A DNA stretch of 58,045 nt, taken from a virus. Its lineage: Duplodnaviria; Caudoviricetes. Below are positions 6,519 through 57,698 of the stretch, piece by piece. The notes under the pieces were generated by a model. It saw only the letters and a program-made list of their open reading frames with translations, made no database searches and was not told the origin of the DNA. The stretch spans positions 1-58,045 of IMG/VR virus record IMGVR_UViG_3300048839_001287. The stretch is one strand, 5' to 3'. Position 1 is the stretch's first letter. Each line of letters begins with the position of its first letter. Position numbers and translations under genes: made by a program.

Positions 6519-6748
6519 GCAGAGACGAATTAAGAAAAATCTCTGCGGATTATGATATATTGCAGACCATGTTTCCAGAAGAGCTTTTTACGGATTGGCT
6601 ACGTCGGACAGATGAACCCGATGTGTTCCATAAAAAGGGAAGGAGCAGTGTAGCCTATCTAGACTTAGGGAAGGCTTCCTGTATAAGGAAAATGGACAAA
6701 AACCTAAAAAAAAGATGCAAGAAAGAGGGCACGAAGATTACGGAATGA
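6497..6748 (+). CDS. Hypothetical protein
   Basis: Packed ORF; stop overlaps the ATG at 6745. Confidence 0.55.
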   Translation: MVTDRRVSRDELRKISADYDILQTMFPEELFTDWLRRTDEPDVFHKKGRSSVAYLDLGKASCIRKMDKNLKKRCKKEGTKITE

Positions 6749-7182
6749 TTAGAATCATTCCCGATAAACTCCAATTAGGAGTTGATTACACTAAAACCAT
6801 GTCCTTCGATGACGCACAAAGATTAGCTGATAGACTCGGCCTTGATCTTGTGTGTGTCAACGAAGCCGCTTTAATATATACAATTACAAACGAAGAAAAG
6901 TTCCTTTATGCTGAAAAGAAAAGAAAGAAAAATAAGCCAAAGGAGCAAAAAACAATAAAAATTAAAGCGGGTATTTCTTCTGCTGATTTAGCTAGAAAAT
7001 TAGAAAATATACTAGAATTCAAAAAAGAAGGACATCCAGTAAAGATTGAGTGGTTCATTCCACAAAGAATGAAAAATGATGTTAATATTACAGCCTTCAA
7101 ATCTTTTTTAACTGTTTTATCTAGCCATTTTCTTGTCAAAATTCCAGAAACGATCGAGATAAAAACCATTTTATATATATGA
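6745..7182 (+). CDS. infC: Translation initiation factor IF3 homologue
   Basis: N-domain MSFDDAQRLADRLGLDLVCVN, basic linker YAEKKRKK, C-domain KTIKIKAGISSADLARKLENILEFKKEGHPVKI match the IF3 architecture; C-terminus looks shortened. Confidence 0.8.
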   Translation: MIRIIPDKLQLGVDYTKTMSFDDAQRLADRLGLDLVCVNEAALIYTITNEEKFLYAEKKRKKNKPKEQKTIKIKAGISSADLARKLENILEFKKEGHPVKIEWFIPQRMKNDVNITAFKSFLTVLSSHFLVKIPETIEIKTILYI

Positions 7183-7595
7183 ACGTAGTTCTTGACAAAA
7201 AGGTTCCTAGACTTATCGCAGTCTATGGAACATTGAGAAAGGGGTGGGGAAACCATCGATTGATAGCCGACGCGGAATTTGTAGGAAAGGGGAAAACCAA
7301 GGAAGACCTGGTGCTTACCCAATCTGGAATTCCCTATGTCTCAAGACAAAAGGTTGGAAATCCGGATTACCCAGCCAGCAAAGTAACAGTGGAAATCTAC
7401 CGCGTCACCGACCCATGGATGATGAATTCACTGGATAGTCTTGAAGGGCATCCAGAGTGGTATTTTCGCAGCCCCGTTGAAGTTGAGTTGGAAGATGGCA
7501 ATGAACTCGTAGCAGAGATTTATCTGAACGAGCGCTCTGTCGGTAGACCAAACGCATCCGGCGACTTCGGAAAACCCATCTTCAGTGAAGAGTAG
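7179..7595 (+). CDS. Gamma-glutamylcyclotransferase (GGCT/AIG2-like)
   Basis: IAVYGTLRKGWGNH...VEIYRV...LDSLEGHPEWYFR. Confidence 0.9.
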   Translation: MNVVLDKKVPRLIAVYGTLRKGWGNHRLIADAEFVGKGKTKEDLVLTQSGIPYVSRQKVGNPDYPASKVTVEIYRVTDPWMMNSLDSLEGHPEWYFRSPVEVELEDGNELVAEIYLNERSVGRPNASGDFGKPIFSEE

Positions 7596-8661
7596 AGAAG
7601 AGATCCAAACAAAGGCCCTGTCTAAATGGTTATCCATTAGGCGGGGTCTTATTGTTTTGCCAACCGGAACAGGAAAATCAAAGGTTGCGATTGATGCTAT
7701 AAAGGCAATAAATCCAAAAAATATTTTGATTGTTGTTCCAACTACAAAGCTAAGAGATATCTCTTGGCCAGCAGAATTAAAGAAATGGGGAATAAGAAGA
7801 AAAATCAAAATTGTATGTTATGTATCTTTACCTAAAATAGTCAATGAAAAATTTGATTTGATTATATTAGATGAAGCGCATAGAATTACTGAAAGAAATA
7901 AAGAATTCTTCAAAAACAATAAATACAAATACTTAATGGGATTAACAGCAACGAATCCCAGAGATAAGTACGACCTTATCAAAGATATTTGTCCCGTTAT
8001 TCATCAAATTGATTTAGATGATGCTATTAAAGCTAATGCAGTATCAGATTATGAAATAAATATTATCTATATTAATCTTGATGCTAAAGATAAGTACATA
8101 GAAGCTGGAAACAAAAAAGCCAGATTTATGACCACAGAAAAAGGTCATTATGATTATCTTACCAAGACTATGAACAAGATTCGTTTCATGCGTAAAGATG
8201 TACCAGAATTTATGTACATGCAGCGTATGAGGTTCATATATAATTTGCGATCGAAAACAACGTACGCAAAAAAGTTTATAGAAGAATTGGACTATAATAG
8301 GTTATTAGTTTTTTGTGGCTCAATTGATCAAGCAAACTATATAACTGATAAAGTTTATCACAGTCAATCAGACGATGTTAATTTGAAGAAATTTATTCAA
8401 GGAGACATCAATATATTGGCATCCGTAAAAGCTTTAAATGAAGGAATGAACATTCCTAATGTAGACACTGCTTTTATTGTACAGCTTAACTCTAAAGAGT
8501 TGGATTTAGTACAAAGAATAGGCCGTGTATTAAGAACAGATAAGGATCAAATAGCCAAGATATATATTTTGGTTGCACTTGATACACAAGATGAGGTTTG
8601 GGCAAATAAAGCAACTGCTTATTTCGACCAAACAAAAATAACTAAAATATATGGAGGATAG
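7585..8661 (+). CDS. Superfamily 2 (DEAH) helicase
   Basis: LPTGTGKS, ILDEAH, GLTAT, LNEGMNIP, QRIGRVLR. Confidence 0.93.
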   Translation: MKSREEIQTKALSKWLSIRRGLIVLPTGTGKSKVAIDAIKAINPKNILIVVPTTKLRDISWPAELKKWGIRRKIKIVCYVSLPKIVNEKFDLIILDEAHRITERNKEFFKNNKYKYLMGLTATNPRDKYDLIKDICPVIHQIDLDDAIKANAVSDYEINIIYINLDAKDKYIEAGNKKARFMTTEKGHYDYLTKTMNKIRFMRKDVPEFMYMQRMRFIYNLRSKTTYAKKFIEELDYNRLLVFCGSIDQANYITDKVYHSQSDDVNLKKFIQGDINILASVKALNEGMNIPNVDTAFIVQLNSKELDLVQRIGRVLRTDKDQIAKIYILVALDTQDEVWANKATAYFDQTKITKIYGG

Positions 8662-9576: not shown

Positions 9577-9896
9577 CAGAAATAGAAAACATTTTAAATG
9601 GAATTCCATATAATTTTTTAGTGGAAAATCCAGACAAACAATATGAAGATATTAAACTAATCCGGATCTTACAGGAAAAAGTCTATGATGGAATTGTACA
9701 TAAGGAAGCAATTCTTATGCACAAAGAGCGAGACCAGTTTCTTAGGTGTGTATGGGCTTTAGACTTTGTACATAACAAAGTGCTATTTGAAGAAATTAAC
9801 AAAATAGACGCAAAAGATGTCGTTTTGTTAATTCTAAAAAGCTTAAACATAAATGACACCATTACCACTATCGAACGCCATAAAGAAGATTCTTGA
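9573..9896 (+). CDS. Hypothetical protein
   Basis: ATGA-coupled ORF. Confidence 0.55.
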   Translation: MTEIENILNGIPYNFLVENPDKQYEDIKLIRILQEKVYDGIVHKEAILMHKERDQFLRCVWALDFVHNKVLFEEINKIDAKDVVLLILKSLNINDTITTIERHKEDS

Positions 9897-10833
9897 GAAT
9901 AAAGGGAGAGCAGATAAAGGATTATCCAACACATTAAATTGGAATTTTCCTTCCTTTGAGAAATATCTTCCTGGTATTGAGAGAGAAAAATTTTACTGCA
10001 TAACTGCAAACACTAGCGTTGGTAAATCTAAGCTGGCTAAATTTATGTTTATCTTCTCCCCATTTGAAAGGTGGAGAAAGCATAGAAACGAAAAGGTAAA
10101 TATATTGTATTACAGTTTAGAAGAATCCAAAACTTACTTCATTCTAAATGCAATATCATTTTATCTTTTTGTGGTTCACGGAGTAAAGAAATCTAGTAAA
10201 GAACTTCTGTCTCTTACATCACCCTTAGATGATAGGATTATTGATTTAATAAAAGACATTAGTCCAATTATAGAGGAGCTTTTATCAGTAGTAACAGTTG
10301 TAGATGATCTTAGAAGACCATCAGAAATTTTTGATCATGCAACCAAGAATCTTATAGAGGATGAAAATGCCTACAACATCATTATTGTAGACCACCTTTC
10401 ATTATTGGATACTGATAGAGACACACCAACTGTTAGAGATGCAATGATAAAGTTTACTTCCAAGTATGCTTTATATCTTAGAGATAAGAAACAGTGTAGT
10501 ATTTGTGTTGTACAGCAACAGGCCGCAGAACAAGAAAGTCTTGACCATTTTATGGAAAAGAAACTTGAACCATCTTTAAATGGTTTAGGAGATGCAAAAG
10601 TATGTGGCAGAGATTACAATGTTGTTTTGGGATTATTTGCCCCAGCAAGACATAGTATTCCAAAATACAGGGGTTATGATGTTCTCAAATTAGGAGATTC
10701 TTATAGGTCTCTTATTATCTTAAAGGACAGAGAAGGTGAAGCAAATATATTTGATCACCTTTATTTTGATGGAAGAGTAAATTATTTTGCTGAACTTCCA
10801 AAAGCAAATGAATTGAATTATTCTATATTATAA
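9853..10833 (+). CDS. dnaB: DnaB-like replicative helicase
   Basis: Walker A ANTSVGKS, YYSLEE, Walker B IIIVDHL, VVQQQ, ILKDREG. Confidence 0.85.
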   Translation: MTPLPLSNAIKKILENKGRADKGLSNTLNWNFPSFEKYLPGIEREKFYCITANTSVGKSKLAKFMFIFSPFERWRKHRNEKVNILYYSLEESKTYFILNAISFYLFVVHGVKKSSKELLSLTSPLDDRIIDLIKDISPIIEELLSVVTVVDDLRRPSEIFDHATKNLIEDENAYNIIIVDHLSLLDTDRDTPTVRDAMIKFTSKYALYLRDKKQCSICVVQQQAAEQESLDHFMEKKLEPSLNGLGDAKVCGRDYNVVLGLFAPARHSIPKYRGYDVLKLGDSYRSLIILKDREGEANIFDHLYFDGRVNYFAELPKANELNYSIL

Positions 10834-10840
10834 ATAGAGA

Positions 10841-11605
10841 ATGAGTATTATATTACCAAAAACAAAAATTGCCGTAGAAGGCGATAATCCTAGGTCCATT
10901 TTATTGTATGGGCCAGAAAAGGTAGGGAAAACCGTCTTTGCATCAAGCTTAGAGGGGGCCTTACTTATTGATCTTGAAGACGGATCAGATTACGTAGAAG
11001 CCATGAAGCTTAAGGTTAATAACTTAAACGAATTACAACAAGTTGGTGGACAAATTCTTAAAGAAAATTGTCCTTACAAGTATGTTATTGTCGATAGTTT
11101 AACAGAGCTTGAATCCTGGCTTGAGTGGGAAGCCACTGAAGATTATATGAACAGTGTTATTGGTCGTTGGTTTAATCGTACAGTAGATAAAGACACATGG
11201 AGACCAACAAGACCAAAAGAAACACCGCCGACTCTCCCGAGAGAAGAGTGGAAAAGTGTTTTATCCCTTGGAGATGGTGCAGGATATCTTTGGCTTCGTA
11301 TAGCCTTTAAAAGATGGCATGCAAAAATTAAAAAACTTGCTCCACATATCATCTATATAGGTCATATGAGAGACAAGATTGAAAACAAAGAAGGGATAGA
11401 AGTCACATCAAAAGAACTTGATTTAACAGGCAAAGTAAGAAGAATTGCTTGTCAATCCGTTGATGCTATTGGCTATATGTTTAGAGACAAATCTGGTAAT
11501 CTTAAAATCAGTTTTGTAAATAACGAAGAGCTTGCATCCGGATCAAGAAACGAGCATCTGAAAGGCAAAATTATTGATGCTGACTGGAAAAATATCTTTG
11601 TATGA
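10841..11605 (+). CDS. AAA-domain ATPase (AAA_24/Sak4-like)
   Basis: LLYGPEKVGKT, LIDLEDG, VIVDSLT, IYIGH, VDAIGYM. Confidence 0.85.
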   Translation: MSIILPKTKIAVEGDNPRSILLYGPEKVGKTVFASSLEGALLIDLEDGSDYVEAMKLKVNNLNELQQVGGQILKENCPYKYVIVDSLTELESWLEWEATEDYMNSVIGRWFNRTVDKDTWRPTRPKETPPTLPREEWKSVLSLGDGAGYLWLRIAFKRWHAKIKKLAPHIIYIGHMRDKIENKEGIEVTSKELDLTGKVRRIACQSVDAIGYMFRDKSGNLKISFVNNEELASGSRNEHLKGKIIDADWKNIFV

Positions 11606-12451: not shown

Positions 12452-12469
12452 TTAATTCACAAACAAATA

Positions 12470-12495
12470 GGGGGCTCCGGCCCCCTTTCTTATTT
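12470..12495 (+). terminator. Intrinsic terminator
   Basis: GGGGGC-TCCG-GCCCCC hairpin followed by TTTCTTATTT. Confidence 0.8.
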
Positions 12496-13416
12496 ATGCA
12501 AAAATCGAAAATATTTCAAGAGAAACAAAGAGGTTGGGGTGTTATCCAAAGAGGAGATTTTAATCCAAAAGCAAGCATTATTGTTCGTTCCACTTCTTTT
12601 GGGTGGGGATGTGCCCAAGAAGTTAGAGACGCGTCAATCGACTTCAGTCAAGAAGCCGAAACCGAACTCAAAAGAATGTGGATTTATTCCTATATCCCTA
12701 TTACTGGTAAAGAGATTCCGGAATTGGTTACTCAATGGATTGGCCTGTTAAACGACGAAATGAAAAAAGTGCAAGTAGAAAATGCCCCATCTTTTTTTGA
12801 GATTCTCGGCGTTTTTACTGCTGATCAGTTGTATAGCCATGAAGGTTACGGCTACCAAAAAGAGCTCGATAATTGGGTAGTCGTAAAGCAACTGATTCCA
12901 AAACGTTCCGAGCTGAAGCCTGAAATAAAATGGGCTAAATTCATGAACCTGGCCCTTTACACACTGGTGCGCTATCTGTACAGATCAGAATACATCCGAA
13001 CTCCACCTACGACAATCAAAATCTGGGAAAAAAATCCGGACTTGACATTTTTAGAGACAATGTGGTTGGCACAACAAACAACCATTGGAATGAAAATCAA
13101 CAGCACATTTTCAATCCATACGTATGATTCTTTGCCAAAAGAATCTATAGAAAAAGTTTTACAAGATTTGACAACAGGTTCAATCTTGCTGGCTTTTGGG
13201 AATAAGTTTTACGATACAAGGTTAATTTCTCAGCCCTTAGTCAACCGGATGGCATCAAATAGTGGAAGATATCCGAATAATGACCTCATGGCTTACGCAA
13301 TGTGTCTGTTGGACAAAGAATTTGCGGAGAGAAAAAATGATTACGAAATCATGAAAGAAGCAATTACAGAAAGAAAATTTCCTGTACTGCTTGAACTGTT
13401 AAAAAAATACAAATGA
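12496..13416 (+). CDS. Hypothetical protein heading the first amidoligase block
   Basis: 306-aa ORF, ATGA-coupled to the class I amidotransferase; no motif recognised. Confidence 0.7.
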   Translation: MQKSKIFQEKQRGWGVIQRGDFNPKASIIVRSTSFGWGCAQEVRDASIDFSQEAETELKRMWIYSYIPITGKEIPELVTQWIGLLNDEMKKVQVENAPSFFEILGVFTADQLYSHEGYGYQKELDNWVVVKQLIPKRSELKPEIKWAKFMNLALYTLVRYLYRSEYIRTPPTTIKIWEKNPDLTFLETMWLAQQTTIGMKINSTFSIHTYDSLPKESIEKVLQDLTTGSILLAFGNKFYDTRLISQPLVNRMASNSGRYPNNDLMAYAMCLLDKEFAERKNDYEIMKEAITERKFPVLLELLKKYK

Positions 13417-14108
13417 GAAGAAAAAAGCTGGTCGGCATCCCACCGACATTAAACAACAATTTGGGAGTATCTCGGGAGTATCATGAATTTTTCAGTTATT
13501 TTGGCAATGTTATTATATTGCCCACGAGCAAAGAACTCATAGATATTGATCTTCTCGTACTCCCGGGAGGTGCCGATGTTTGCCCCAGCCGTTACTCAGT
13601 TGATCGGTTTTTCTCTTATGGAGGAAATCCAAACAGATTTTATGAGTGGTTTGATACGCAGGTACTCCCTGGTTACATTCAAAGAGCAATAAACAGGGAA
13701 ATGGGAATTTTTGGTATTTGCCGAGGACTGCAAACCCTCAATGTCGCTCTTGGAGGAACTCTTTACCAACATCTGTTGGACGAAGTGTATAATCCAGAGT
13801 TAGACAGAAGCAAATTGACACAAACCGGAATTGTGCTGGATACAGCAAAGGACGTATGGAACGGGCCGAGAGAAATCAAATTTAATTCAATGCACCATCA
13901 GGCTATCCGCCAATTGGGTGATGGATTAGTTCCGACTATTCTCTCAAAAAACCCGGTTACTGCAACAGAGCACTATGAACCCTTCAAAGTCATTGAAGGA
14001 ATCAGACACAAGACAGGGAAAATCTGGGGGGTACAATACCATCCAGAAGAAATCTACGACGCATTTTCCAACAAAATAATTAATCATATTCTTTATGAAA
14101 AACTTTAA
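13413..14108 (+). CDS. Class I glutamine amidotransferase / peptidase C26 (PuuD-like gamma-glutamyl hydrolase)
   Basis: LVLPGGADV, GICRGLQ (nucleophile Cys), NSMHHQ, GVQYHPE. Confidence 0.92.
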   Translation: MRRKKLVGIPPTLNNNLGVSREYHEFFSYFGNVIILPTSKELIDIDLLVLPGGADVCPSRYSVDRFFSYGGNPNRFYEWFDTQVLPGYIQRAINREMGIFGICRGLQTLNVALGGTLYQHLLDEVYNPELDRSKLTQTGIVLDTAKDVWNGPREIKFNSMHHQAIRQLGDGLVPTILSKNPVTATEHYEPFKVIEGIRHKTGKIWGVQYHPEEIYDAFSNKIINHILYEKL

Positions 14109-14967
14109 TGAAGTCACAGTTGGCTCCGATGTCGAAGTGTTTCTCACAACAAACGGCTTACCAATTTCAGCGGTTGGCCTTATTGATGGAGGAAAAGAGA
14201 ATCCGGTAGAATTTTTACCGGGGTTCGGTCTCCAACGCGACAATGTGATGGCCGAATACAACATTCCGGCTTTCCCGATTGAAGAGAGGCACCTTTGGCC
14301 CGAGTACCACAAAACTGCTCTGGAACACATCAAAACAATAGTCCCGCCATTCCTGCAAGTAACTGTTCGCCCTAGCCTGGAATTCCCGGAAGAAGCTCTT
14401 CAGGACCCAGAGTCGTGCGAATTCGGCTGCTCGCCCTTCGTGGACATCTGGAAACAAAACCCAGGAATGGTGACACAAGAAACAATTGTTGCCGGAGACG
14501 TTGGTAACCTTCGCTTTTGCGGGGGGCATATCCATTTCGGATGGCAAGGAGCTTCCATCGGCTGGGATAAACCCAGCGAAAAAGTTACCGACGAAGAAGA
14601 AATTTTAAAAAAACTTTTCTGGGCCAGCTTATGCGACATTTTCCTCTGGATTCCTTCACACTTCGAGGACACCGATGATATCCGCCGTCAATACTACGGC
14701 AAACCCGGGAAAGTCCGGTACAAAGAGTACGGTGTTGAGTATCGTTCTTTGAGCAACTACTTCGTTGCTTCAGAAGAACTGCTCAACAAAGTCATGCAAC
14801 GCATTCAGGCAATGCATGATTATGCAAATACCGTACACCCGAGCGATTGGGCCGCCCACTTCGAAGAAAACCGGAAAATGATTGAAATGTTTGTAGCAGC
14901 AAAAGACAAAAAAGCTGCTGCCGAACAGTGCAATCTGGCTTGCCGGTTTAATCTGCAAATCGCCTAA
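14095..14967 (+). CDS. phiEco32-like COOH-NH2 ligase type 2
   Basis: VGSDVEVFL, GGKENP, QRDNVMAEYN, FGC, RFCGGHIHFG, RRQYYGKPG, YGVEYRSLSN. Confidence 0.88.
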   Translation: MKNFNEVTVGSDVEVFLTTNGLPISAVGLIDGGKENPVEFLPGFGLQRDNVMAEYNIPAFPIEERHLWPEYHKTALEHIKTIVPPFLQVTVRPSLEFPEEALQDPESCEFGCSPFVDIWKQNPGMVTQETIVAGDVGNLRFCGGHIHFGWQGASIGWDKPSEKVTDEEEILKKLFWASLCDIFLWIPSHFEDTDDIRRQYYGKPGKVRYKEYGVEYRSLSNYFVASEELLNKVMQRIQAMHDYANTVHPSDWAAHFEENRKMIEMFVAAKDKKAAAEQCNLACRFNLQIA

Positions 14968-14971
14968 AAAA

Positions 14972-16012
14972 ATGGACTACAGCATCAGAGAAGATTTAAA
15001 CTTCTCAAGTATTCGACAAACAATTTCTGATGAAGAAATCTATGCTGGATATATAGGTGCTCCCATCCAACTAGACACAAAGTACTGTTCTGTCTTTCGT
15101 TCAAATGATATGATTCCTTCATTATCCTTTTATGTGACTCCGAATCACTGGGTAATGCATAAAGATTTTGGACGAAACGACAGAGCAGGAAATGTATTTG
15201 ATTTTGTACGAAAGCTGTATCAATTAGAAAATAATTGGCAAGCAGCAGTACAAATAAATAAGGATTTTGGTTTAGGTTTATTGAATAATACAAAAACCTC
15301 TCCAAAACCTTCTGTTCCTATAAAGAGGATGGAGAGCAAAAAATTACAAAATATTGAAAAGATATTAAGGTATAAACCAAGACCTTTTTTTGAAAGAGAT
15401 TTATTTTATTGGAGTAAATTCAACGTAGACTTGAATATACTTAAACATTTCAATGTGCATACAGCGGACATTGTTTTTATTAACAATGTTCCTATATGGG
15501 TCTACGAAATAACAAACCCTATATATGTGTACACTTTTACTGATAAATTTAAATTTTATCGACCACTTACTAAAAATAAGGACGGTAAATTTTTATCCAG
15601 TAAAAATATTGGAGAAGTATATGCTGGTTATGAACAACTTCCCAGAAATGGAGAAGAACTTATCATCACCAAAGCTATGAAAGATGTTATGGTTCTTTAT
15701 AGTTTAGGAATTAATGCTATTGCTCCTAACGGAGAAACATACGCATTTGATCCATTAATAATAAAGAATTTAGAACAGCGGTTCAAAAAAATTTTTATAA
15801 TGTTGGATAATGATTGGCATAAGCCAGTAGAAGATAATACTGGAATTAATGCCATGAAAAAGTTTACTGAAAAATATCCAACAATATTACCATTAATTAT
15901 TCCAGACCAATTAAAATGTACAGATATAGCAGAGGTCATGGATGAATATGGTGTTTCATTTACAAAACAAGTACTAAATCATGTTAGAAAAAATTCAAGG
16001 AAATTTTCATAA
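14972..16012 (+). CDS. dnaG: DNA primase (Toprim, crAss type)
   Basis: N-terminal CSVFR..D..PS...KDFG...GNVFDFV; Toprim IITKAMKDVM...IMLDND...TDIAE. Confidence 0.85.
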   Translation: MDYSIREDLNFSSIRQTISDEEIYAGYIGAPIQLDTKYCSVFRSNDMIPSLSFYVTPNHWVMHKDFGRNDRAGNVFDFVRKLYQLENNWQAAVQINKDFGLGLLNNTKTSPKPSVPIKRMESKKLQNIEKILRYKPRPFFERDLFYWSKFNVDLNILKHFNVHTADIVFINNVPIWVYEITNPIYVYTFTDKFKFYRPLTKNKDGKFLSSKNIGEVYAGYEQLPRNGEELIITKAMKDVMVLYSLGINAIAPNGETYAFDPLIIKNLEQRFKKIFIMLDNDWHKPVEDNTGINAMKKFTEKYPTILPLIIPDQLKCTDIAEVMDEYGVSFTKQVLNHVRKNSRKFS

Positions 16013-16637
16013 AATTATCGAAGCTTTTCAACAAACAGAGGACTGGAAAAAGTTAAAAGATTTTATTGGCAAAAACAATATTTTGCCGACAAAAGATAAA
16101 ATTTTTTATGCTTTTGAATTGTGTCCTATGGAAAAAATAAATGTGGTAGTTATAGGGCAAGATCCTTATCATACTCCAGGAGCAGCCCACGGATTGGCTT
16201 TTTCTGTCCCACAAGAATATTCTCAAGTGCCGCCGTCCCTTTTAAACATCAAAAAAGAAATTGCCGATGATATCTATGGAACAAAAGATGTAGATATCAT
16301 AAATAATGATTTATCATATCTTGCTGCCCAAGGGGTTTTACTTTTAAATACATCCTTAACTACTATTCCTGGTGTTGCTGGTGCGCACAAGAAGGAGTGG
16401 GAAAATTTTACAGCACATGTAATGAAACATTTGGGGCAACTTGAAAATGTTGTCTTTATGTTGTGGGGAAAACACGCACAAGAGTTAGAAGGTTTTATTA
16501 ACCATAAAACCAACCTGGTTCTTCGTGCTGCTCATCCATCTCCTTTTTCTGCAAACAAAGGGTTTTTGGGTTGTAAACATTTCTCTAAGGCAAACGAGTA
16601 CTTAAAAACAAAAAATAAACCAGAAATCGTATGGTAA
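15981..16637 (+). CDS. ung: Uracil-DNA glycosylase, family 1
   Basis: GQDPYH, HGLAFS, VPPSL, GVLLLN, LWG, HPSP. Confidence 0.97.
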   Translation: MLEKIQGNFHKIIEAFQQTEDWKKLKDFIGKNNILPTKDKIFYAFELCPMEKINVVVIGQDPYHTPGAAHGLAFSVPQEYSQVPPSLLNIKKEIADDIYGTKDVDIINNDLSYLAAQGVLLLNTSLTTIPGVAGAHKKEWENFTAHVMKHLGQLENVVFMLWGKHAQELEGFINHKTNLVLRAAHPSPFSANKGFLGCKHFSKANEYLKTKNKPEIVW

Positions 16638-17644
16638 CGATACCAAATACATTGAAAAATAAGGCTAATGAAAAAATAAGGAAATTTCTCCGGAAATATT
16701 CTTTATTATTAAAAAAACTACATCCAAACTTGGCTGCTTCTTACAGAAAAGAAAATATTCAAATAGAAGGTAACTGGGCAAAACAGTTTCGCCTTGTACT
16801 AGAGCAATATGTTCGAAATGAGGAGGCCGAAAATTGGCAGGATTTTATCCAATTGGTGATTGATCTGAAGTTTCATGATTTGTACAAACAGATTGAAAAA
16901 GCAGAGTTGATTTGCTATAAAGAAGAAATTAAACCACCAAAAAAACAAAAAACTAATTTTAATCAGCAGGAAAATATTTTATCTTTATTGTTGACCAAAT
17001 TCTTACATTGTTCATCTATTGAAGAAAAAGACGAAGTAAGAAAAGAAATGCACAGAGCTTTGTTTTCAATTTTCCAAGACTTGAAAACAATGAGAGAAAT
17101 TGTGCCAAGTTTAGAACAATATTCAAATTTGGTAGAGCTAAAGATGTCAATTAATAGAATCTCAAAAATGGCCAGCAGAAATTCAGATGAACTTATTTAT
17201 CTCATACAAAATGAAATCAAAAGAATATCGAGCGTTACAAATCCGATCAAGACACCCATCCCATCGAATCCTTCGCAGAACATCCATTTTAAAACAGGTA
17301 AGCCGGGGTCTGTCGGTGATTATTCGAATGGGTTCGACAACGACATTGTCAGTAGACGAAAAGACGTTACAACTGAACCCATTCGAAGGGGTCCAGGCTT
17401 GCGCGAACAAACTAGAGATGAAGCGGTTATTTACGAAGTTCCAAGTTCAGACTCCACCTTGGGTTTTTATTCCGAGGAACCTGGCATCAGAACAAGCACT
17501 GCAAGTCCTGAAAGAAATCAATGGACGAGAGTTGAACGAGAGTTCTATGCTAGTCTTCAAGACCGTCAATCACTCACGTGGCCGGGGAATGATGCTGTTG
17601 GATTGGAACCAAGTCAGGGAATTCCTGACGAAACCAAGGACTAA
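16631..17644 (+). CDS. Hypothetical protein; last ~144 codons overlap the ATP-grasp gene
   Basis: Helical N-terminal ~190 aa, then a Pro/Ser-rich tail read in an alternative frame of the next gene. Confidence 0.6.
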   Translation: MVTIPNTLKNKANEKIRKFLRKYSLLLKKLHPNLAASYRKENIQIEGNWAKQFRLVLEQYVRNEEAENWQDFIQLVIDLKFHDLYKQIEKAELICYKEEIKPPKKQKTNFNQQENILSLLLTKFLHCSSIEEKDEVRKEMHRALFSIFQDLKTMREIVPSLEQYSNLVELKMSINRISKMASRNSDELIYLIQNEIKRISSVTNPIKTPIPSNPSQNIHFKTGKPGSVGDYSNGFDNDIVSRRKDVTTEPIRRGPGLREQTRDEAVIYEVPSSDSTLGFYSEEPGIRTSTASPERNQWTRVEREFYASLQDRQSLTWPGNDAVGLEPSQGIPDETKD

Positions 17645-18050
17645 AGATTACATTGTCGAAAAATTTGTTTCACACACAAAAGAATACCGTATCCATGTGT
17701 CTTCTTTGGGCAGATGTTTTTACACCTGTCGAAAAATGTTGAAACAGGACGCTACTGAAAGATGGTTCAGAAATTCCAAAAACTCCGTGTGGATTTTGGA
17801 AGACAACCCTCTTTTCGATAAGCCTATTACATGGAACGCAATTGTTCAAGACTGTCTTAAAGCCCTCAATGCTTTAGGTCTCGATACTTGTGCTTTCGAC
17901 GTAAAAGTAAACAAGAAAGGAGAGTGGAGTATTCTGGAAGGTAACTCAGCACCTTCTTTTGGAGACTGTACAATAGACAATCCCACGATTGTTGCACAAA
18001 GATACATAGAAGAATTTAAAGATTTAATAATCGAAAAAAGCAAAAAGTAA
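17211..18050 (+). CDS. ATP-grasp ligase (phiEco32/YheCD/RimK-like)
   Basis: ANKLEMK, HSRGRGM, YIVEKF, KEYRIHV, LGLDTCAFDV, ILEGNSAPS. Confidence 0.88.
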   Translation: MKSKEYRALQIRSRHPSHRILRRTSILKQVSRGLSVIIRMGSTTTLSVDEKTLQLNPFEGVQACANKLEMKRLFTKFQVQTPPWVFIPRNLASEQALQVLKEINGRELNESSMLVFKTVNHSRGRGMMLLDWNQVREFLTKPRTKDYIVEKFVSHTKEYRIHVSSLGRCFYTCRKMLKQDATERWFRNSKNSVWILEDNPLFDKPITWNAIVQDCLKALNALGLDTCAFDVKVNKKGEWSILEGNSAPSFGDCTIDNPTIVAQRYIEEFKDLIIEKSKK

Positions 18051-19786
18051 TGTGCGGAATTTTCGGATATTCGGGGCCGTCCCCCGATTTAGATAAGGTT
18101 AGGGTGCTTGGCATCCAAAACGACACAAGAGGGGGAAACGGATGTGGAATTTACATAGATGGGACACTTCACAAATCCGTTACACCCCCGAAATTCGGAG
18201 ATTGGGTGAAGACCGTCCGTCTTCCCCAACCAACCAAAGTAGGCACAACGTTCGGACATTGCCGGAAGGCAACAGTTGGAGCCGTCTCATTGGACAATAC
18301 GCATCCATTTGAAATCCGCGGCACCAATAACCGGGTAAAACTGGTTGGTATGCACAACGGTACGATTTCAAACTGGTCGGAACTGTGCGAAAAGCACAAC
18401 ATTGACAGCCACCAAGACATTCAAGTAGACTCTGTTGGTCTACTGTCTTTGTTGGCTCAACTTCCCAAAGGAGACTTCTCAATTTTAGAAGAGTATGTTG
18501 GTGCTGCTGCTCTGGCATGGGTTTATTCTTCTAAACCGAACGAGCTGTATCTATTTCACGGGAAGTCCCCGAGATACAAAAACTCTACGATAGAATCGGA
18601 AGAACGCCCGCTCTATTTTTGGGATATCTCAAAAGAGAAGAAAGGCGAAGAAATCGTAGACACAGGAAAAGTGGGAATCTACTTCTCAAGTATCAAAGAT
18701 TCTCTTATGCTTATTGGAGCCTTAGAGAATGAAGTAGAAGATCTCCCGCATAACAAAGTTTTCGTCATTGAAAATGGAAAGATGCGTGAAATTCGGGAAA
18801 TCAACAGAGCAAAAGCTGCCCAAGAAGAATGGTCAACTACTGGCACTAGTTACGACTACAGCGACAAGAGGACTTATGGCATGGGGGGGACAAATTATAA
18901 CGACGTTACCAATTTTACTCACAAAACCTATTACCCACCATCCGGAAAAAAGATTCCCGATCCTACCAAGTTTGTTAAGATAATACAAAACAGCGACAAA
19001 TTTCTTCTGCTCAAAAATGAGCCGGAAATACCTATCAGCAACACGTACGGAAAGGTATACTTTCATAAGGGCTTGTACTGGAGAGCGGGGTTTCCTGTTC
19101 ATAGTCGTTTTGCTGTTTTTGATTCTTCTATCAATAGCGCCCCATTTATGATGGATATACCGTTTTATGTTGACATAGACGGTACAGTACTTACCATGAA
19201 AGAAGGGGCCGCTAGACAGCTTACTCCATACTATTTCTACAGAGGCTACCTGATGGAAAACAGAGAAAAGTATGAGGGGCTTTGTCGGGAGATCGAAAAC
19301 TTTACTACAGTTAGCGCAACAATGTATAAAACGTGCTACCTAAAACGAGTACATCCAAGACAGTTTGTTGCATGGTCAGAAAGTAGTTACGGTAATAGTA
19401 CAAACGACGGCAAAATTTTGTTGCCGGATATAACTAAGGTTGAACACGGTAATTGGTGGAACTGCGTAGCAAATGGGGCTGTTTATCCGTTATTCTCCAA
19501 CAAAGTTTATCATTTTGAAGACGGACAGTTGAATATGATCGAAGAGCGAGAAAGCTACAACGGTCTTATCATTAGTCCAGAAGATTATGAACAAACCGAA
19601 GCAACTGATGTGGAAGAATTCGAACAAGCTGCCGCGGATCTTTGTAAAGAATTTACAGAACAGTTGGAGGATTTTATATCTGATAACTACGCGATTTTCG
19701 AGTCCAAAGAAGAAAACGATACAGTAATGAGAATGATTGTGTTGAAAAAAATTGTCGAAGGAGTAATTAAATACCAAGAACAATAA
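18050..19786 (+). CDS. Class II (Ntn) glutamine amidotransferase with long C-terminal extension
   Basis: MCGIFG (Cys2 nucleophile), RG..GCG, GHCRKATVG, NTHPF, HNGTI, VDS, ERPL. Confidence 0.92.
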   Translation: MCGIFGYSGPSPDLDKVRVLGIQNDTRGGNGCGIYIDGTLHKSVTPPKFGDWVKTVRLPQPTKVGTTFGHCRKATVGAVSLDNTHPFEIRGTNNRVKLVGMHNGTISNWSELCEKHNIDSHQDIQVDSVGLLSLLAQLPKGDFSILEEYVGAAALAWVYSSKPNELYLFHGKSPRYKNSTIESEERPLYFWDISKEKKGEEIVDTGKVGIYFSSIKDSLMLIGALENEVEDLPHNKVFVIENGKMREIREINRAKAAQEEWSTTGTSYDYSDKRTYGMGGTNYNDVTNFTHKTYYPPSGKKIPDPTKFVKIIQNSDKFLLLKNEPEIPISNTYGKVYFHKGLYWRAGFPVHSRFAVFDSSINSAPFMMDIPFYVDIDGTVLTMKEGAARQLTPYYFYRGYLMENREKYEGLCREIENFTTVSATMYKTCYLKRVHPRQFVAWSESSYGNSTNDGKILLPDITKVEHGNWWNCVANGAVYPLFSNKVYHFEDGQLNMIEERESYNGLIISPEDYEQTEATDVEEFEQAAADLCKEFTEQLEDFISDNYAIFESKEENDTVMRMIVLKKIVEGVIKYQEQ

Positions 19787-21468
19787 TGGAAGTAATAACC
19801 TTTTTTGGCGGCACTGCGAATAGAACACAGTGCCGCTACATTAAGGGGAGTTTCTACGAAATTGGAAAAGAAGCCTACATGGTAGATGGCCAATGGCACA
19901 GAGTTAATAACAGCAAAATTGGGTACGACATGATTTCCAAAGAATGGAGATTAATGGAAAGTATGCCCATAAACTACAAAAAAGTTTTGTTGAACATTGA
20001 CCCTGTAACAAATATGCCTTACTATGGCTACAGACCGATTGAAAAAGAAGAGGCTTTTCTGTTCGTTACAGTTTCGCGCACCATTCCGGGGTCGAAAAAT
20101 AACGAAACGGTATCAAAGCACATCGAAGCCTTAATCAATCGTGGCGCCGATTCAGCAGAAGCTGCCCAACAATACCTAGTGTATACGTCGAAAAACAGAA
20201 AAGAAACCTTGCCAAGAGATGAGTGGTTTAAGGCTAACTTTTTACCAAAACTGCAAAAAACTCTTGAAGAGTTGGAAGAGTCTGAATACATGAATTACAG
20301 TCAAATTCTTTGCGAAGAACAGTTGGCCGTTAAACTTGGTCATGTGGAAGACCCGAAAACCGGGATTTTCTATCAAAAAGATCGTTTGACAAATACAGAA
20401 AAGCAAAGAATAAGTAAAATCATGACTTATTCCTTGCAGTACTATGGTCGTGCCTACACAACGGTAGGACACAAAGACGAAGAGCAAACAAGGGAATACA
20501 GCGAAATTTACAGCAGAAAGATTTCAGGAAAACCCGCCGACAAAGTATTACAGAAGTTTATTCCTTACACGTTTGGAATTGAACACGAGACCATTCGTGG
20601 CTTTATACCGGAACCCAGACTTCCCTGGTTAGGTCTTATTCCTTTAAGGGATGGGTCGCTTGAAACTGGAGATGGGCCCGCCGGAATTGAGTATACATCT
20701 GTACCAATGGAGGGGGAATATGGAATTCGTTTATTGCGAAAACAAGCAGAATACCTCAAGAAAAGCTGCGTAGTAAATAACAAATGTGCTTGGCATATCC
20801 ATTTTTCCGGGTTCCCCAGAACTTGGTCTTATGTTAGCAAACTGTATTCTACATGCAAGTTACTCGAAGATGAAATGTATTCCTTGTTCCCAAGATACAA
20901 AAGGCATTCCAGGGAAATCATTGGCTCTCAAAAAGAGTATACGGCTCCTTTGCCCGCTGGATTAGACAGGCCCAGAAACATGTTCAATTATCTTTCTGGA
21001 GGAATGGACGAAACCAGAGCAGAATTCGAGGGGCAAAAATTTGAGGGGGAAATAAAGCACATTAACATAAGACACCATCCCAATGGTGATCAAAAATGGA
21101 ATCGTGCAGCCAGATATCATTGGATAAACTTTGAGCCCATCATTTTTTCTCCGGCGCAAACAATTGAGTTCAGACTTCACACTCCTACGGTTAACTTCCA
21201 AAAGATGGTAGCATGGTTACTGATTTGTTCTGCAATTCTACGTTACGCAGAAATCATGCTTGTAGCTCCATTGACAAAAAAACTGTCGTTGGAAACTGTA
21301 ATCAAAGAAGTAATCGATACCAAATGGCTCCAAGAGTGGGTACTTCGTTACATTGAAACAAGGAAAAGTTGGTTCGTGAATGGAACCGATGAAACAGGAG
21401 AGAAAGAAATTGCCTATGATAAAGTCTTTTCTATCTCGACTGTTGGAGAAAAAATATCTGTTGAATGA
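19786..21468 (+). CDS. Putative amidoligase (Amidoligase_2 / COOH-NH2 ligase fold) with N-terminal extension
   Basis: TFGIEHET, RDGSL, GIEYTS, CAWHIHF, RYHWIN, TIEFRLH. Confidence 0.85.
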   Translation: MEVITFFGGTANRTQCRYIKGSFYEIGKEAYMVDGQWHRVNNSKIGYDMISKEWRLMESMPINYKKVLLNIDPVTNMPYYGYRPIEKEEAFLFVTVSRTIPGSKNNETVSKHIEALINRGADSAEAAQQYLVYTSKNRKETLPRDEWFKANFLPKLQKTLEELEESEYMNYSQILCEEQLAVKLGHVEDPKTGIFYQKDRLTNTEKQRISKIMTYSLQYYGRAYTTVGHKDEEQTREYSEIYSRKISGKPADKVLQKFIPYTFGIEHETIRGFIPEPRLPWLGLIPLRDGSLETGDGPAGIEYTSVPMEGEYGIRLLRKQAEYLKKSCVVNNKCAWHIHFSGFPRTWSYVSKLYSTCKLLEDEMYSLFPRYKRHSREIIGSQKEYTAPLPAGLDRPRNMFNYLSGGMDETRAEFEGQKFEGEIKHINIRHHPNGDQKWNRAARYHWINFEPIIFSPAQTIEFRLHTPTVNFQKMVAWLLICSAILRYAEIMLVAPLTKKLSLETVIKEVIDTKWLQEWVLRYIETRKSWFVNGTDETGEKEIAYDKVFSISTVGEKISVE

Positions 21469-21827
21469 AAAACAACAAGAGCAGGGGAAACACGTGGGAA
21501 AGAACCATCGTGAAGTACCTAAAAGAGTTGGGGTATGAAGGGATCAACACTTGTCGTGCAGAATCTAAACTGCGCGATAATCAAAAGGTTGATATATGTA
21601 GTTTGCCTGGGTGGAATATCCAAGCAAAGACCCTTCATACCCCGGTACATCCGGAAAAGATTTTATCTGTAATGCCGGAGGAAGATGCAGTTAATGTCAT
21701 CTTTTTTAAAAAAACGAAGAAAATGGGAAAAAGATTTATGCCAGAAGGAGAATACGCAATTCTTAATCTTGCAGACTTTTTAGAAATAATGAAAAGTATA
21801 GATGAAAAAACGAACAGCACTCATTGA
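21465..21827 (+). CDS. PD-(D/E)XK Holliday junction resolvase-like nuclease
   Basis: NKSRGNTWERTIVKYL...VDI...IQAK. Confidence 0.8.
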   Translation: MKNNKSRGNTWERTIVKYLKELGYEGINTCRAESKLRDNQKVDICSLPGWNIQAKTLHTPVHPEKILSVMPEEDAVNVIFFKKTKKMGKRFMPEGEYAILNLADFLEIMKSIDEKTNSTH

Positions 21828-22563: not shown

Positions 22564-23101
22564 TAATAATTCGTCAACGCTCTTTCTTTTGCCAATAACT
22601 AATATGCAATTAGGGGATTTCTATTCTCATAATTTCATAAACACCTTTGTTGGGGATGATGAGTTGGCAGAAGAAACCAAAGATAAAATACTGGTTGTTA
22701 TTAAACCAGATAATAAAATAAAATTAGAAACATTCATGGAAAATCGAGTAAGAAAGAATAAACTTTACTTATTCGAATACGATATGGATGATTATCTTAT
22801 TATTGTTTTTGATGTCCCTATGATATGGGGACCAGTACTTTATCTGTTTAAACAAGGAAAATACTCGCAATTCCCCGAAGAGTATAAACAAGCTTATTTT
22901 CCAAAGATAAGCCCCATTACTAAAAGGGAATCTTTAATCCATAAAATATTATACAAACATGAGGATGCTTTCCGTTTCCTTGAAATGAAGTATGATATTG
23001 TTATTCCAAGACATCAAGAAGCATGGTCAAAACCACGCTGTCATGAAGAAATATTTAGATTTAACGAAAACAATTCAATACTATGTTGGACCAAGAATTA
23101 A
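22529..23101 (+). CDS. Hypothetical protein
   Basis: 190-aa ORF (...FKQGKYSQF...) following the exonuclease. Confidence 0.7.
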   Translation: MKNYKTWRGPDDNNSSTLFLLPITNMQLGDFYSHNFINTFVGDDELAEETKDKILVVIKPDNKIKLETFMENRVRKNKLYLFEYDMDDYLIIVFDVPMIWGPVLYLFKQGKYSQFPEEYKQAYFPKISPITKRESLIHKILYKHEDAFRFLEMKYDIVIPRHQEAWSKPRCHEEIFRFNENNSILCWTKN

Positions 23102-23535
23102 AAAACTTTGTGTTAATACAACTTGAGGGATTGCTTGGGAATCAATTCGTCCCTTTTGCAAACCACGGTAGCCATAACTATAGAAACGGTGTGGCGCATA
23201 CAATAACACGAATCAACGGCAGAGGAAATTCTGTACGTGGATACAGGGAATATGCAGAGGAAGAAGGCAATGCCATCAACCTCAATGAAGAGGCCCGCCT
23301 TGTTTACACAGAAAAGGGTGTGGATAATATCCTGAAAAACATTAACATTGTTAAAAAAGAGCTGGTCAAATTGGAAGAAGAATTTCTTTCCATAAAAGAA
23401 AAGGTCAAAGAAAAAGGGGTATATGACCCCAAAACAGAAAGGCTCGAAGAAATGCTGGTTCTTTTGAGGGAAAAAAACACAGACCCAGCCATTATTGTGG
23501 ACAAACTGTTGAAAGCAGTAAATAGTGGCTGGTAA
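23083..23535 (+). CDS. Hypothetical protein
   Basis: 150-aa ORF with coiled-coil C-terminus. Confidence 0.65.
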   Translation: MLDQELKNFVLIQLEGLLGNQFVPFANHGSHNYRNGVAHTITRINGRGNSVRGYREYAEEEGNAINLNEEARLVYTEKGVDNILKNINIVKKELVKLEEEFLSIKEKVKEKGVYDPKTERLEEMLVLLREKNTDPAIIVDKLLKAVNSGW

Positions 23536-57056: not shown

Positions 57057-57698
57057 TCATTGTTCAACCAGCCGGTATTTTCCAGTAATATCTTCCCAAA
57101 CAGTCTTCCCTTTATCGTTGGCACCGAGCTTAAATACCGGGACTGGAACACTGTTGATCTCCAAAATCATGGTATTATCAGACCTGCGTTCTACCGAGTA
57201 AAAGATATTGTTGTCTGCAACTTGTCGGAGACGAAGGCTTTCGTTTTGACGCTGAAACAACTCGTAGCTGCCTTGGTTGGCACCGTCCATTACAAATCTA
57301 AAAGTAGATAATACGCGGCCTTGTCCTTCAAATCCTGGATAGAAATAGTCACGAGTTGCTTTCTCAAGAGTAATGCCCCCGATGGAAGCGTAGAGGTTTT
57401 TCAGGTCACGAACCTTGGCTTTGAGTACCCGGCTACCCAGGATGTAAGACACAGCGGCACCACCTACCTCTTGGTTGAGGTTGATGTATTGAGCCAGGAT
57501 AAATTGCTTGGTCTGTGCCGTGTCACCAATCGCAGTAGGATTGATGTTTAGATTACGACCAACAGGTGTATACTGGATGTCACGTGCTTCATAAAAAGCA
57601 CCGTCTTGCCAGATGAGATAAGAAGTGTCTTTAGTTACTTTCTGAGCGAAAAGATTTGCTGCGAACAGCGACAGAATAATAATTAGAATGTTTTTCAT
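57057..57698 (-). CDS. Secreted hypothetical protein with Sec signal peptide
   Basis: MKNILIIILSLFAANLFA-Q signal peptide with +1 Gln. Confidence 0.7.
   Translation of the reverse strand: MKNILIIILSLFAANLFAQKVTKDTSYLIWQDGAFYEARDIQYTPVGRNLNINPTAIGDTAQTKQFILAQYINLNQEVGGAAVSYILGSRVLKAKVRDLKNLYASIGGITLEKATRDYFYPGFEGQGRVLSTFRFVMDGANQGSYELFQRQNESLRLRQVADNNIFYSVERRSDNTMILEINSVPVPVFKLGANDKGKTVWEDITGKYRLVEQ

Follow-up and report, generated by a model that had tools for sequence, protein, structure and literature searches.

Do the enzymes of amide-bond chemistry that lie scattered through the replication genes of one crAss-like phage belong together, and what would they make? The question arises from IMG/VR virus record IMGVR_UViG_3300048839_001287, whose entire length of 58,045 bases was analysed and is called the window below. 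The record is linear and estimated to be 58% complete. Because its family A DNA polymerase (PolA) is best matched by cr108_1, cr111_1, IAS virus and Bacteroides phage DAC15 (28-30% identity over 93-99% of the query) and its minus strand carries giant open reading frames (ORFs) of 1,335, 3,200 and 1,742 amino acids (aa), we assign the window to a crAss-like phage, of which it is a fragment; near-identical DNA was not found among GenBank phages. From 4333 to about 23,900 the + strand forms a single co-directional, tightly packed replication gene array. Within this array lie seven predicted genes that, as comparison of related loci shows, travel together across unrelated phage lineages, and we propose that they constitute one functional module making a glutamate- or glutamine-derived amide product, a reading to which we give an even chance of being right. 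The seven genes are the following:

7179-7595, + strand: gamma-glutamyl cyclotransferase (GGCT)-like enzyme of the GGACT/AIG2 family, which forms a third piece apart from the rest (Pfam GGACT 8e-17, 62.4 bits, cut-off 22.8; phrog_2520 1.1e-22)
12496-13416, + strand: accessory protein of 306 aa, called ORF 12496 below (no Pfam or PHROG family; 4-nt overlap with the next gene)
13413-14108, + strand: class I glutamine amidotransferase or C26-type cysteine hydrolase, called GAT-I below (Peptidase_C26 9.6e-26, 91.3 bits, cut-off 20.5; GATase 7.5e-15, 55.5 bits)
14095-14967, + strand: phiEco32-type COOH-NH2 ligase, type 2 (PF14395), with a glutamine-synthetase/GCS2-like fold (COOH-NH2_lig 27.1 bits, cut-off 25; phrog_3815 9.1e-48)
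17187-18050, + strand: RimK-like ATP-grasp ligase (phrog_2599 1.4e-26 over residues 39-278)
18050-19786, + strand: class II (Ntn) glutamine amidotransferase, called GAT-II below (GATase_6 9.4e-12, 45.5 bits, cut-off 27)
19786-21468, + strand: Amidoligase_2 (PF12224), a second glutamine-synthetase-like ligase (29.2 bits, cut-off 22; phrog_2443 5.1e-27)

Consecutive cassette genes overlap by 1-14 nt at four junctions (ORF 12496/GAT-I, GAT-I/ligase, ATP-grasp/GAT-II and GAT-II/Amidoligase_2, the last by 1 nt). The ATP-grasp gene scored under the Pfam cut-offs (ATPgrasp_ST 19.8 bits versus 31.4; R2K_2 19.4 versus 26.2). Its identity is nonetheless secure, because it matches phrog_2599 and aligns with the cassette homologues of cr108_1, phi14:2 and Lbo-JY46 at 35-37% identity over 262-289 columns, starting at residue 17-18.

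Co-occurrence of the cassette genes across phages

An earlier, sequence-only reading of this DNA had treated the two amidotransferases, the three ligases and the GGCT as one dispersed system resembling that of phiEco32. Pfam and PHROG searches recovered every enzyme gene that it named, all on the + strand, and the SNF2-type helicase, DnaB-like, Sak4-like, primase and uracil-DNA glycosylase (UDG) genes separate three blocks as it described. Its central claim, that the dispersed genes are one system, would be contradicted if the genes occurred independently in relatives. To look for such independence, an alignment of six COOH-NH2 ligases was used to collect 265 IMG/VR relatives, the best 80 loci were kept with at most 10 kb per side, and these were scanned with profiles from the window and five reference phages. 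The COOH-NH2 ligase, Amidoligase_2, GAT-II and ATP-grasp genes were all present, on one strand and within 10 kb, in 73 of the 80 loci, and the claim was not refuted. Four of the seven exceptions are cut by a contig end (L045, L051, L062 and L073), two lack the ATP-grasp gene only (L020 and L064) and one lacks most of the set (L021). GGCT was found in 54 loci and GAT-I in 51. Pairwise adjacency is also conserved: GAT-II adjoins Amidoligase_2 in 69 of 74 loci, GAT-I immediately precedes the COOH-NH2 ligase in 36 of 51, and the ATP-grasp gene adjoins GGCT in 35 of 54. Together with a codon-composition signature common to the set (see below), this co-occurrence places the grouping far beyond chance.

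Other searches gave a sense of the breadth and limits of these families. The ligase alone matched 313 phage records by tblastn, a single-protein IMG/VR scan with Amidoligase_2 returned only the window itself, and no domain fusions between cassette families were seen among the longest homologues. Two large contigs (L020 and L064; 160 and 176 kb) carry a minimal five-gene module consisting of a protein of the gp029/gp030 type (see below), GAT-I, the COOH-NH2 ligase, GAT-II and Amidoligase_2, with no ATP-grasp or GGCT gene within 10 kb.

By gene content the set is the phiEco32/LUZ24-type amidoligase cassette, in a crAss-like version placed within a replication gene array. This cassette was reportedly predicted in 2009. 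The comparison with phiEco32 made in the earlier reading was correct, in that the enzyme content fits every defining feature of the known cassette except contiguity. Genes 77-88 of phiEco32 and gp19-gp29 of the LUZ24-like Pseudomonas phage UFV-P2 likewise encode a COOH-NH2 ligase, Amidoligase_2, GAT-II, a RimK-like ATP-grasp ligase, GGCT and a small protein after the ligase, on one strand of the early/replication region and with a primase(-helicase) adjoining. Unlike in the window, their genes are contiguous, in the order ligase, phrog_4877 protein, Amidoligase_2, GAT-II, ATP-grasp and GGCT, followed by the primase/helicase. Neither phage has a recognisable class I amidotransferase, the phrog_4877 protein taking its place; their upstream proteins (gp87/gp88 and gp19/gp20) have no detectable similarity to ORF 12496; and their COOH-NH2 ligases are about 26-33% identical to that of the window.

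The crAss-like cassette is itself already annotated in GenBank, in two phages. In Cellulophaga phage phi14:2 (Crassvirales, Steigviridae), g036-g042 encode primase, GGCT, ATP-grasp, COOH-NH2 ligase, GAT-II, amidoligase and UDG, with RusA next, and the cassette of the window has a like ending, Amidoligase_2 and then RusA. The phi14:2 cassette differs from that of the window in lying contiguously between primase and UDG and in lacking GAT-I and a protein of the ORF 12496 type, with identities of 28-37%. In the uncultured crAss-like phage cr108_1, gp028-gp035 encode ATP-grasp, the paralogues gp029 and gp030 without known function, GAT-I, COOH-NH2 ligase, GAT-II, amidoligase and UDG, with primase before ATP-grasp. 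ORF 12496 of the window occupies the position of gp030, directly before GAT-I, whereas cr108_1 has a contiguous cassette, two copies of the accessory protein and no GGCT. Finally, in cyanophage Lbo-JY46 the cassette is unbroken and includes two or three class I amidotransferases, and the Amidoligase_2 homologue of this phage is 30% identical to that of the window over 434 columns.

Split gene order and codon composition

The window cassette is co-directional and lies in three pieces rather than one, with GGCT 4.9 kb upstream of the first main block. Besides ORF 16631 (discussed below), the genes interposed between the pieces, all of them outside the cassette, are:

7585-8661, + strand: SNF2-type helicase, between GGCT and block 1
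9853-10833, + strand: DnaB-like helicase, between GGCT and block 1
10841-11605, + strand: Sak4-like ATPase, between GGCT and block 1
14972-16012, + strand: DnaG-type primase, between the COOH-NH2 ligase and ATP-grasp (phrog_12622 1.6e-37)
15981-16637, + strand: family-1-like UDG, between the COOH-NH2 ligase and ATP-grasp (Pfam UDG 1.4e-14)

Such an arrangement is rare, a primase or UDG gene lying inside the cassette span in only two of the 80 loci. The commonest order is ligase-Amidoligase_2-GAT-II-ATP-grasp-GGCT (19 loci), and two crAss-like orders between primase and UDG account for 10 loci each. The window matches a less common order, primase-UDG-GGCT-ligase-ATP-grasp-GAT-II-Amidoligase_2 (three loci), for the ligase, ATP-grasp, GAT-II and Amidoligase_2 genes, and departs from it in two respects: primase, UDG and ORF 16631 separate the ligase from ATP-grasp, and GGCT lies 4.9 kb upstream.

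Codon composition connects the separated pieces. The G+C content at third codon positions (GC3) is 0.48 in GGCT, 0.38 in ORF 12496, 0.39 in GAT-I, 0.51 in the COOH-NH2 ligase, 0.43 in ATP-grasp, 0.43 in GAT-II and 0.41 in Amidoligase_2, as against 0.25 in PolA, 0.27 in SNF2, 0.24 in DnaB, 0.28 in Sak4, 0.23 in primase, 0.27 in UDG and 0.26 in FEN. The value for the detached GGCT stands against 0.27-0.28 in both of its flanking genes, and 12 of the 13 minus-strand genes, representing the genome backbone, have a GC3 of 0.20-0.32; the minus-strand ORF at 57057-57698 is raised as well (0.44). The difference between cassette and neighbouring genes, +0.143, is the largest of 86 (the window, the five reference phages and the 80 loci), and since the median in the 80 IMG/VR loci is -0.007, with a difference above 0.10 in only one of them, raised GC3 is not a general property of these enzymes. 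Thus, the cassette genes of this lineage have a common history that differs from that of the genes now between them, and their shared foreign composition points to a set that was later split by rearrangement or around which replication genes were exchanged. No close donor was found, the best homologues being 29-42% identical and from different loci.

These observations bear on whether the genes have a joint product at all. Unrelated auxiliary metabolic genes could have come to lie in the same array by chance, as the lack of contiguity, the distance of GGCT from the first block and the absence of GGCT and of GAT-I from about a third of related loci might suggest. Such an accident is exceedingly improbable, given that the four core enzymes occur together in nearly all loci, that most of the exceptions end at a contig boundary, that pairwise adjacency is conserved and that the GC3 signature extends to all seven genes, including the detached GGCT.

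The genomic surroundings raise a further possibility, namely that the targets of the cassette are to be sought in DNA, nucleotides or the replisome. It could, for instance, amidate or gamma-glutamylate a base or nucleotide, and its regular occurrence next to primase and UDG would then be accounted for. Primase homologues accompany the cassette in 40 of the 80 loci and UDG homologues in 29, and replication or nucleotide-metabolism genes (DnaB, primase-helicase, RNR, dUTPase, PolA exonuclease, endonuclease VII or dATP/dGTP diphosphohydrolase) are neighbours in each IMG/VR architecture examined. A primase/helicase gene lies directly downstream in phiEco32 and UFV-P2, and in the window primase and UDG lie inside the cassette. 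Nevertheless, Pfam and PHROG detected no nucleic-acid-binding domain, glycosylase-type transferase or base-hypermodification-type kinase in the cassette, and no base-modifying transferase, kinase or transglycosylase was found among the 23 + strand proteins encoded between 4333 and 23535 of this record, which is about 58% complete. In Lbo-JY46, moreover, the cassette lies beside NAD-salvage-type genes (PncB and PrsA) with the DNA polymerase 8 kb away. Finally, the codon composition of the cassette is foreign to the replication genes of the window, so that linkage need not mean shared function. We therefore consider action on DNA or nucleotides very unlikely. As a separate observation, in 13 of 86 clustered loci the cassette is followed, after a few kb, by a dATP/dGTP diphosphohydrolase-type gene (PF18909, 3.1e-34; L024 18554-19039), with a counterpart in phi14:2 (g057).

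The accessory protein and the overlapping reading frame

The earlier reading had placed two ORFs without assigned function, at 12496 and 16631, at the heads of the two main blocks and had named both as candidate members or substrates of the system. The two fared differently. An exhaustive HMMER search gave five distant relatives of ORF 12496 (290-333 aa) and a word-based search one close relative; the six share with it the invariant motifs GWGCAQ, RYxYR and TFxxH. A Pfam search of all seven family members gave nothing below E 0.04. Clustering of all ORFs from 86 loci revealed a second family, typified by gp029/gp030 of cr108_1, whose genes lie directly upstream of GAT-I in 19 of the 80 IMG/VR loci and in cr108_1, the same position as that of ORF 12496. 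Its members have 239-338 aa, with invariant Cys, Arg and Glu residues; a typical member would have about 255-340 aa, a conserved N-terminal Cys motif and a central helix bearing Arg and Glu.

When profiles were compared with hhalign, ORF 12496 against gp029/gp030 gave the best of 22 pairs (probability 34%, E 4e-4). BLAST and single-sequence hhalign detected no similarity between the two. Profiles of ORF 12496, gp029/gp030 and the clusters c18, c11, c23 and c14 against the five enzyme families gave at most 1.4% in all 30 pairs, the upstream proteins of phiEco32 and UFV-P2, as single sequences, gave at most 4.1% against the ORF 12496, gp029/gp030 and c18 profiles, and profile comparison thus showed no common family among the compared proteins beyond the link between ORF 12496 and gp029/gp030. 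An AF2 model of ORF 12496 (pLDDT 74, pTM 0.78) found as its top three matches in BFVD the 300-aa and 329-aa proteins of cr108_1 and a 295-aa crAss-like protein, each with a probability of 0.99 and a TM of only 0.33-0.46. By position, profile and fold we regard ORF 12496, with moderate confidence, as a divergent member of the gp029/gp030 accessory family, and the earlier suggestion that it belongs to the cassette is accordingly plausible. In Lbo-JY46 two paralogous proteins of 247 and 252 aa (E 3e-19 mutually; L003 4227-5732) are encoded between PncB and PrsA, just upstream of the cassette, and a comparison of them with ORF 12496 showed no link (E 0.16).

Structural comparison of this family has yielded leads. 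The model of the gp029/gp030 family (pLDDT 86, pTM 0.89) weakly resembles the McsB kinase domain (Z 5.7), PafA (Z 4.7, 167 aligned residues), arginine kinase (Z 4.7) and Dop (Z 4.4, 170 aligned), and the ORF 12496 model resembles McsB (Z 4.3), all of these scores being below the range that the tool calls informative. VIA-align wide gave best Z-scores of 5.3 and 5.7 for the two models, again as leads only, and Foldseek gave no match at E <= 0.001 for either model against the PDB. The ORF 12496 model also repeatedly and weakly resembled BirA/biotin ligase (Foldseek E 0.11, TM 0.2; VIA Z 3.9). A PDB search by sequence with the gp029/gp030 family gave one chance-level match, and the ESM Atlas gave no usable look-alikes of ORF 12496 or ORF 16631. 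The weak resemblance of the models to McsB/arginine kinase and PafA/Dop is best treated as a lead and not a result.

If the resemblance to PafA and Dop were real, it would favour a role in protein tagging. On this reading host or phage proteins would receive tags of glutamate or short peptides from the ligases, much as in RimK modification or pupylation, and the cysteine hydrolases and GGCT would take the tags off again or process them. The ATP-grasp protein matches a PHROG named for ribosomal protein S6 modification, and Burroughs et al. (2015) propose host-protein modification by phage ATP-grasp ligases of a related clade. The PafA and Dop Z-scores, however, are in the uninformative range, no conserved small ORF resembling a tag was found in the cassette, and the R2K_2 match is below its cut-off. 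We regard tagging as rather unlikely.

The second ORF proved to be of a different kind:

16631-17644, + strand: lineage-specific ORF of 337 aa, called ORF 16631 (no Pfam or PHROG family; overlaps the ATP-grasp gene)

Its family comprises four sequences, the three relatives having 327-337 aa; none came from IMG/VR or JGI metagenome contigs, and its profile matched nothing in the PDB by sequence. Residues 1-100 are 92, 74 and 74% identical to the three relatives and residues 186-337 are 52, 26 and 27% identical, with 18-52% identity among the relatives beyond residues 1-100. Because a profile scan found the family in none of the 80 loci and the non-overlapping part of the gene has a backbone GC3 of 0.29, ORF 16631 appears to be a lineage-specific gene and not a cassette member, and its earlier candidacy as member or substrate is not borne out. 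It is indeed present at the head of the second block, but it is not free-standing there, since its final 152 codons share 458 nt, in the +2 frame, with the first half of the ATP-grasp gene.

Both frames of this overlap look coding. The overlapped half of the ATP-grasp gene is truly coding, as its alignment with homologues from residue 17 shows. At 151 codons, the open run in the alternative frame is unmatched in the window (the next among the + strand genes is 75; stop rate 0.08 per codon), exceeds those of all 76 homologous ATP-grasp genes (median 24, maximum 91) and belongs to an ORF retained at full length in all three relatives. The tail of ORF 16631 thus looks like a genuine extension overprinted on the ATP-grasp gene. 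A frameshift fusion of the two genes was also considered. The ATP-grasp frame opens only at 17142, its ATG lies at 17187, and the homologues are stand-alone proteins that align from residue 17; two overlapping genes are therefore more likely than a fusion by a +1 shift between 17142 and about 17240.

Several further features of the array were recorded. The only sizeable intergenic gap of the array (44 nt) lies just 5' of ORF 12496 and contains the following:

12469-12486, + strand: terminator-like G+C-rich hairpin (7 pairs, 6 of them G-C, with a T-rich tail; consensus match only)

Given this hairpin, block 1 may be the start of a separate or attenuated transcription unit. The UDG of the window retains GQDPYH and HPSPFS, which we take to be the catalytic motifs of UDG. 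Among 32 aligned UDGs from beside the cassette, the window and reference phages included, 23 retain G[QL]DPY plus His-Pro, five have Glu in place of Asp and four lack the first motif. Directly upstream of the GGCT gene, and overlapping it by 4 nt, is an IF-3-like ORF of 155 aa (6715-7182; IF3_N 3e-7, 31 bits, cut-off 26.9; IF3_C 0.0023, under its cut-off), which is unexpected in the replication array of a crAss-like phage. Near the start of the record are genes for tRNA-Met (CAT; 491-564) and tRNA-Leu (TAA; 2214-2298).

Proposed chemistry and its alternatives

What the module would make can be approached from its pairs of genes. The proposed pathway contains two glutamine-dependent pairs, GAT-I with the COOH-NH2 ligase and GAT-II with Amidoligase_2. 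Each pair would activate a carboxylate with ATP and then amidate or gamma-glutamylate it, the cysteine hydrolase giving ammonia or a glutamyl group. The ATP-grasp ligase would add a further amino acid, probably glutamate, and the GGCT-like enzyme would trim a gamma-glutamyl group as 5-oxoproline. The product would most likely be a soluble, cytoplasmic glutamate- or glutamine-derived amide compound or precursor made during phage replication. That each amidotransferase serves the neighbouring ligase is inferred from the conserved pairing and from the chemistry familiar for these folds, as represented by glutamine synthetase/GCS-type ligases, RimK and glutathione synthetase (ATP-grasp), Ntn and triad amidotransferases, and GGCT/GGACT. 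Cells offer analogies by enzyme logic in the gamma-glutamyl cycle, the Puu pathway (PuuA/PuuD) and MurT/GatD, in which a GS/GCS-type or Mur-type ligase is paired with a cysteine amidotransferase or C26 hydrolase, glutathione synthetase is the ATP-grasp second ligase and GGCT trims. In contrast to these cellular systems, the ligases of the window find no solved relative by sequence: a PDB search gave none for Amidoligase_2 and only chance-level matches for the COOH-NH2 and ATP-grasp ligases (E 0.16-0.31).

Catalytic residues are retained. The GAT-I triad (Cys103, His210 and Glu212) is invariant in 37 of 37 aligned homologues. The COOH-NH2 ligase has 19 residues that are invariant across 59 sequences, among them D12, E14, E54, H145, H147, R197, E215 and R217, and many of the 19 are charged or histidine. 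GAT-II begins with Met-Cys, as do 64 of 82 homologues, and a PDB sequence search gave weak PurF-type matches to its N-domain only.

Several points weigh against the module as proposed. The best Pfam match of GAT-I, Peptidase_C26, is a hydrolase family, which makes an eraser role equally possible, and the conserved adjacency fits amidotransferases that donate ammonia to neighbouring ligases and the write/erase arrangement of the sequence-only reading equally well. The C-terminal 320 aa of GAT-II and the N-terminal extension of about 290 aa of Amidoligase_2, the presumed acceptor-binding parts, match no assigned family. About a third of the loci lack GGCT and about a third lack GAT-I, and the pathway is to that extent not fixed. 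The 80 loci are the best of 265 and the profiles come from six phages, so that the co-occurrence figures describe relatives of the query. GC3 is raised also in the RusA-like gene at 21465-21827 (0.40) and in the ORF at 23083-23535 (0.42), and composition alone therefore does not delimit the cassette. Finally, no paper found reports a product, a substrate or a physical interaction; in accordance with the earlier reading, which held that the product is not established, the literature searched contains, in the portions available, only annotation-level remarks, including second-hand citations of the 2009 prediction.

A soluble product is also to be weighed against one in the envelope. The cassette might modify peptidoglycan precursors in the cytoplasm or some other part of the envelope, for example through amidation or extension of a stem-peptide carboxylate, and so alter the cell surface and exclude competing phages. 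The combination of a ligase with a glutamine amidotransferase recalls the logic of lipid II amidation by MurT/GatD. Five of the 82 GAT-II homologues, that of phi14:2 among them, carry a hydrophobic segment of 27-31 residues ahead of the catalytic Cys (L004 12202-14118, which is phi14:2 g040, and L022, L054, L060 and L077); it may be a propeptide, a membrane anchor or the result of a mis-set start. Two papers cite a cell-wall or superinfection-exclusion idea for phiEco32, and later papers credit it to Iyer et al. (2009). The GAT-II of the window, however, begins directly at Met-Cys, and the cassette proteins of the window showed no Mur-ligase, transpeptidase or membrane domain; their most hydrophobic 19-residue segment scores 1.89 in Amidoligase_2 and at most 1.38 in the others. 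No experiment on such a role was found in the literature searched. An envelope target is thus possible though unlikely.

A more far-reaching version of the replication hypothesis can also be stated. The persistent linkage to primase, helicase and UDG in at least three unrelated lineages would then mean that the cassette works on the substrates of replication, for example by glutamine-dependent amidation or gamma-glutamylation of a replisome protein, a nucleotide or a DNA base. The family of gp029/gp030 and ORF 12496 would be a hitherto unrecognised, highly diverged, ligase-like seventh component, and ORF 16631, through its overprinted tail, would supply a regulator of the ATP-grasp ligase peculiar to this lineage. 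We hold this combination to be even more doubtful than action on DNA or nucleotides by itself.

The additions of the window copy to the cassettes already annotated are a rare gene order, the accessory family and the overlapping ORF. As a natural split version, it indicates that the cassette genes need not be contiguous, and its codon-composition signature marks the genes that belong together, including the detached GGCT and ORF 12496. It also ties an accessory family, with Cys, Arg and Glu as invariant residues, to the pair formed by the class I amidotransferase and the ligase. Few phage enzyme sets without a known product are as widespread as this cassette, to which a single further copy contributes little. 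Identification of the product would account for a function common to crAss-like phages of the gut and the sea and to the phiEco32/LUZ24-type phages of Escherichia and Pseudomonas.

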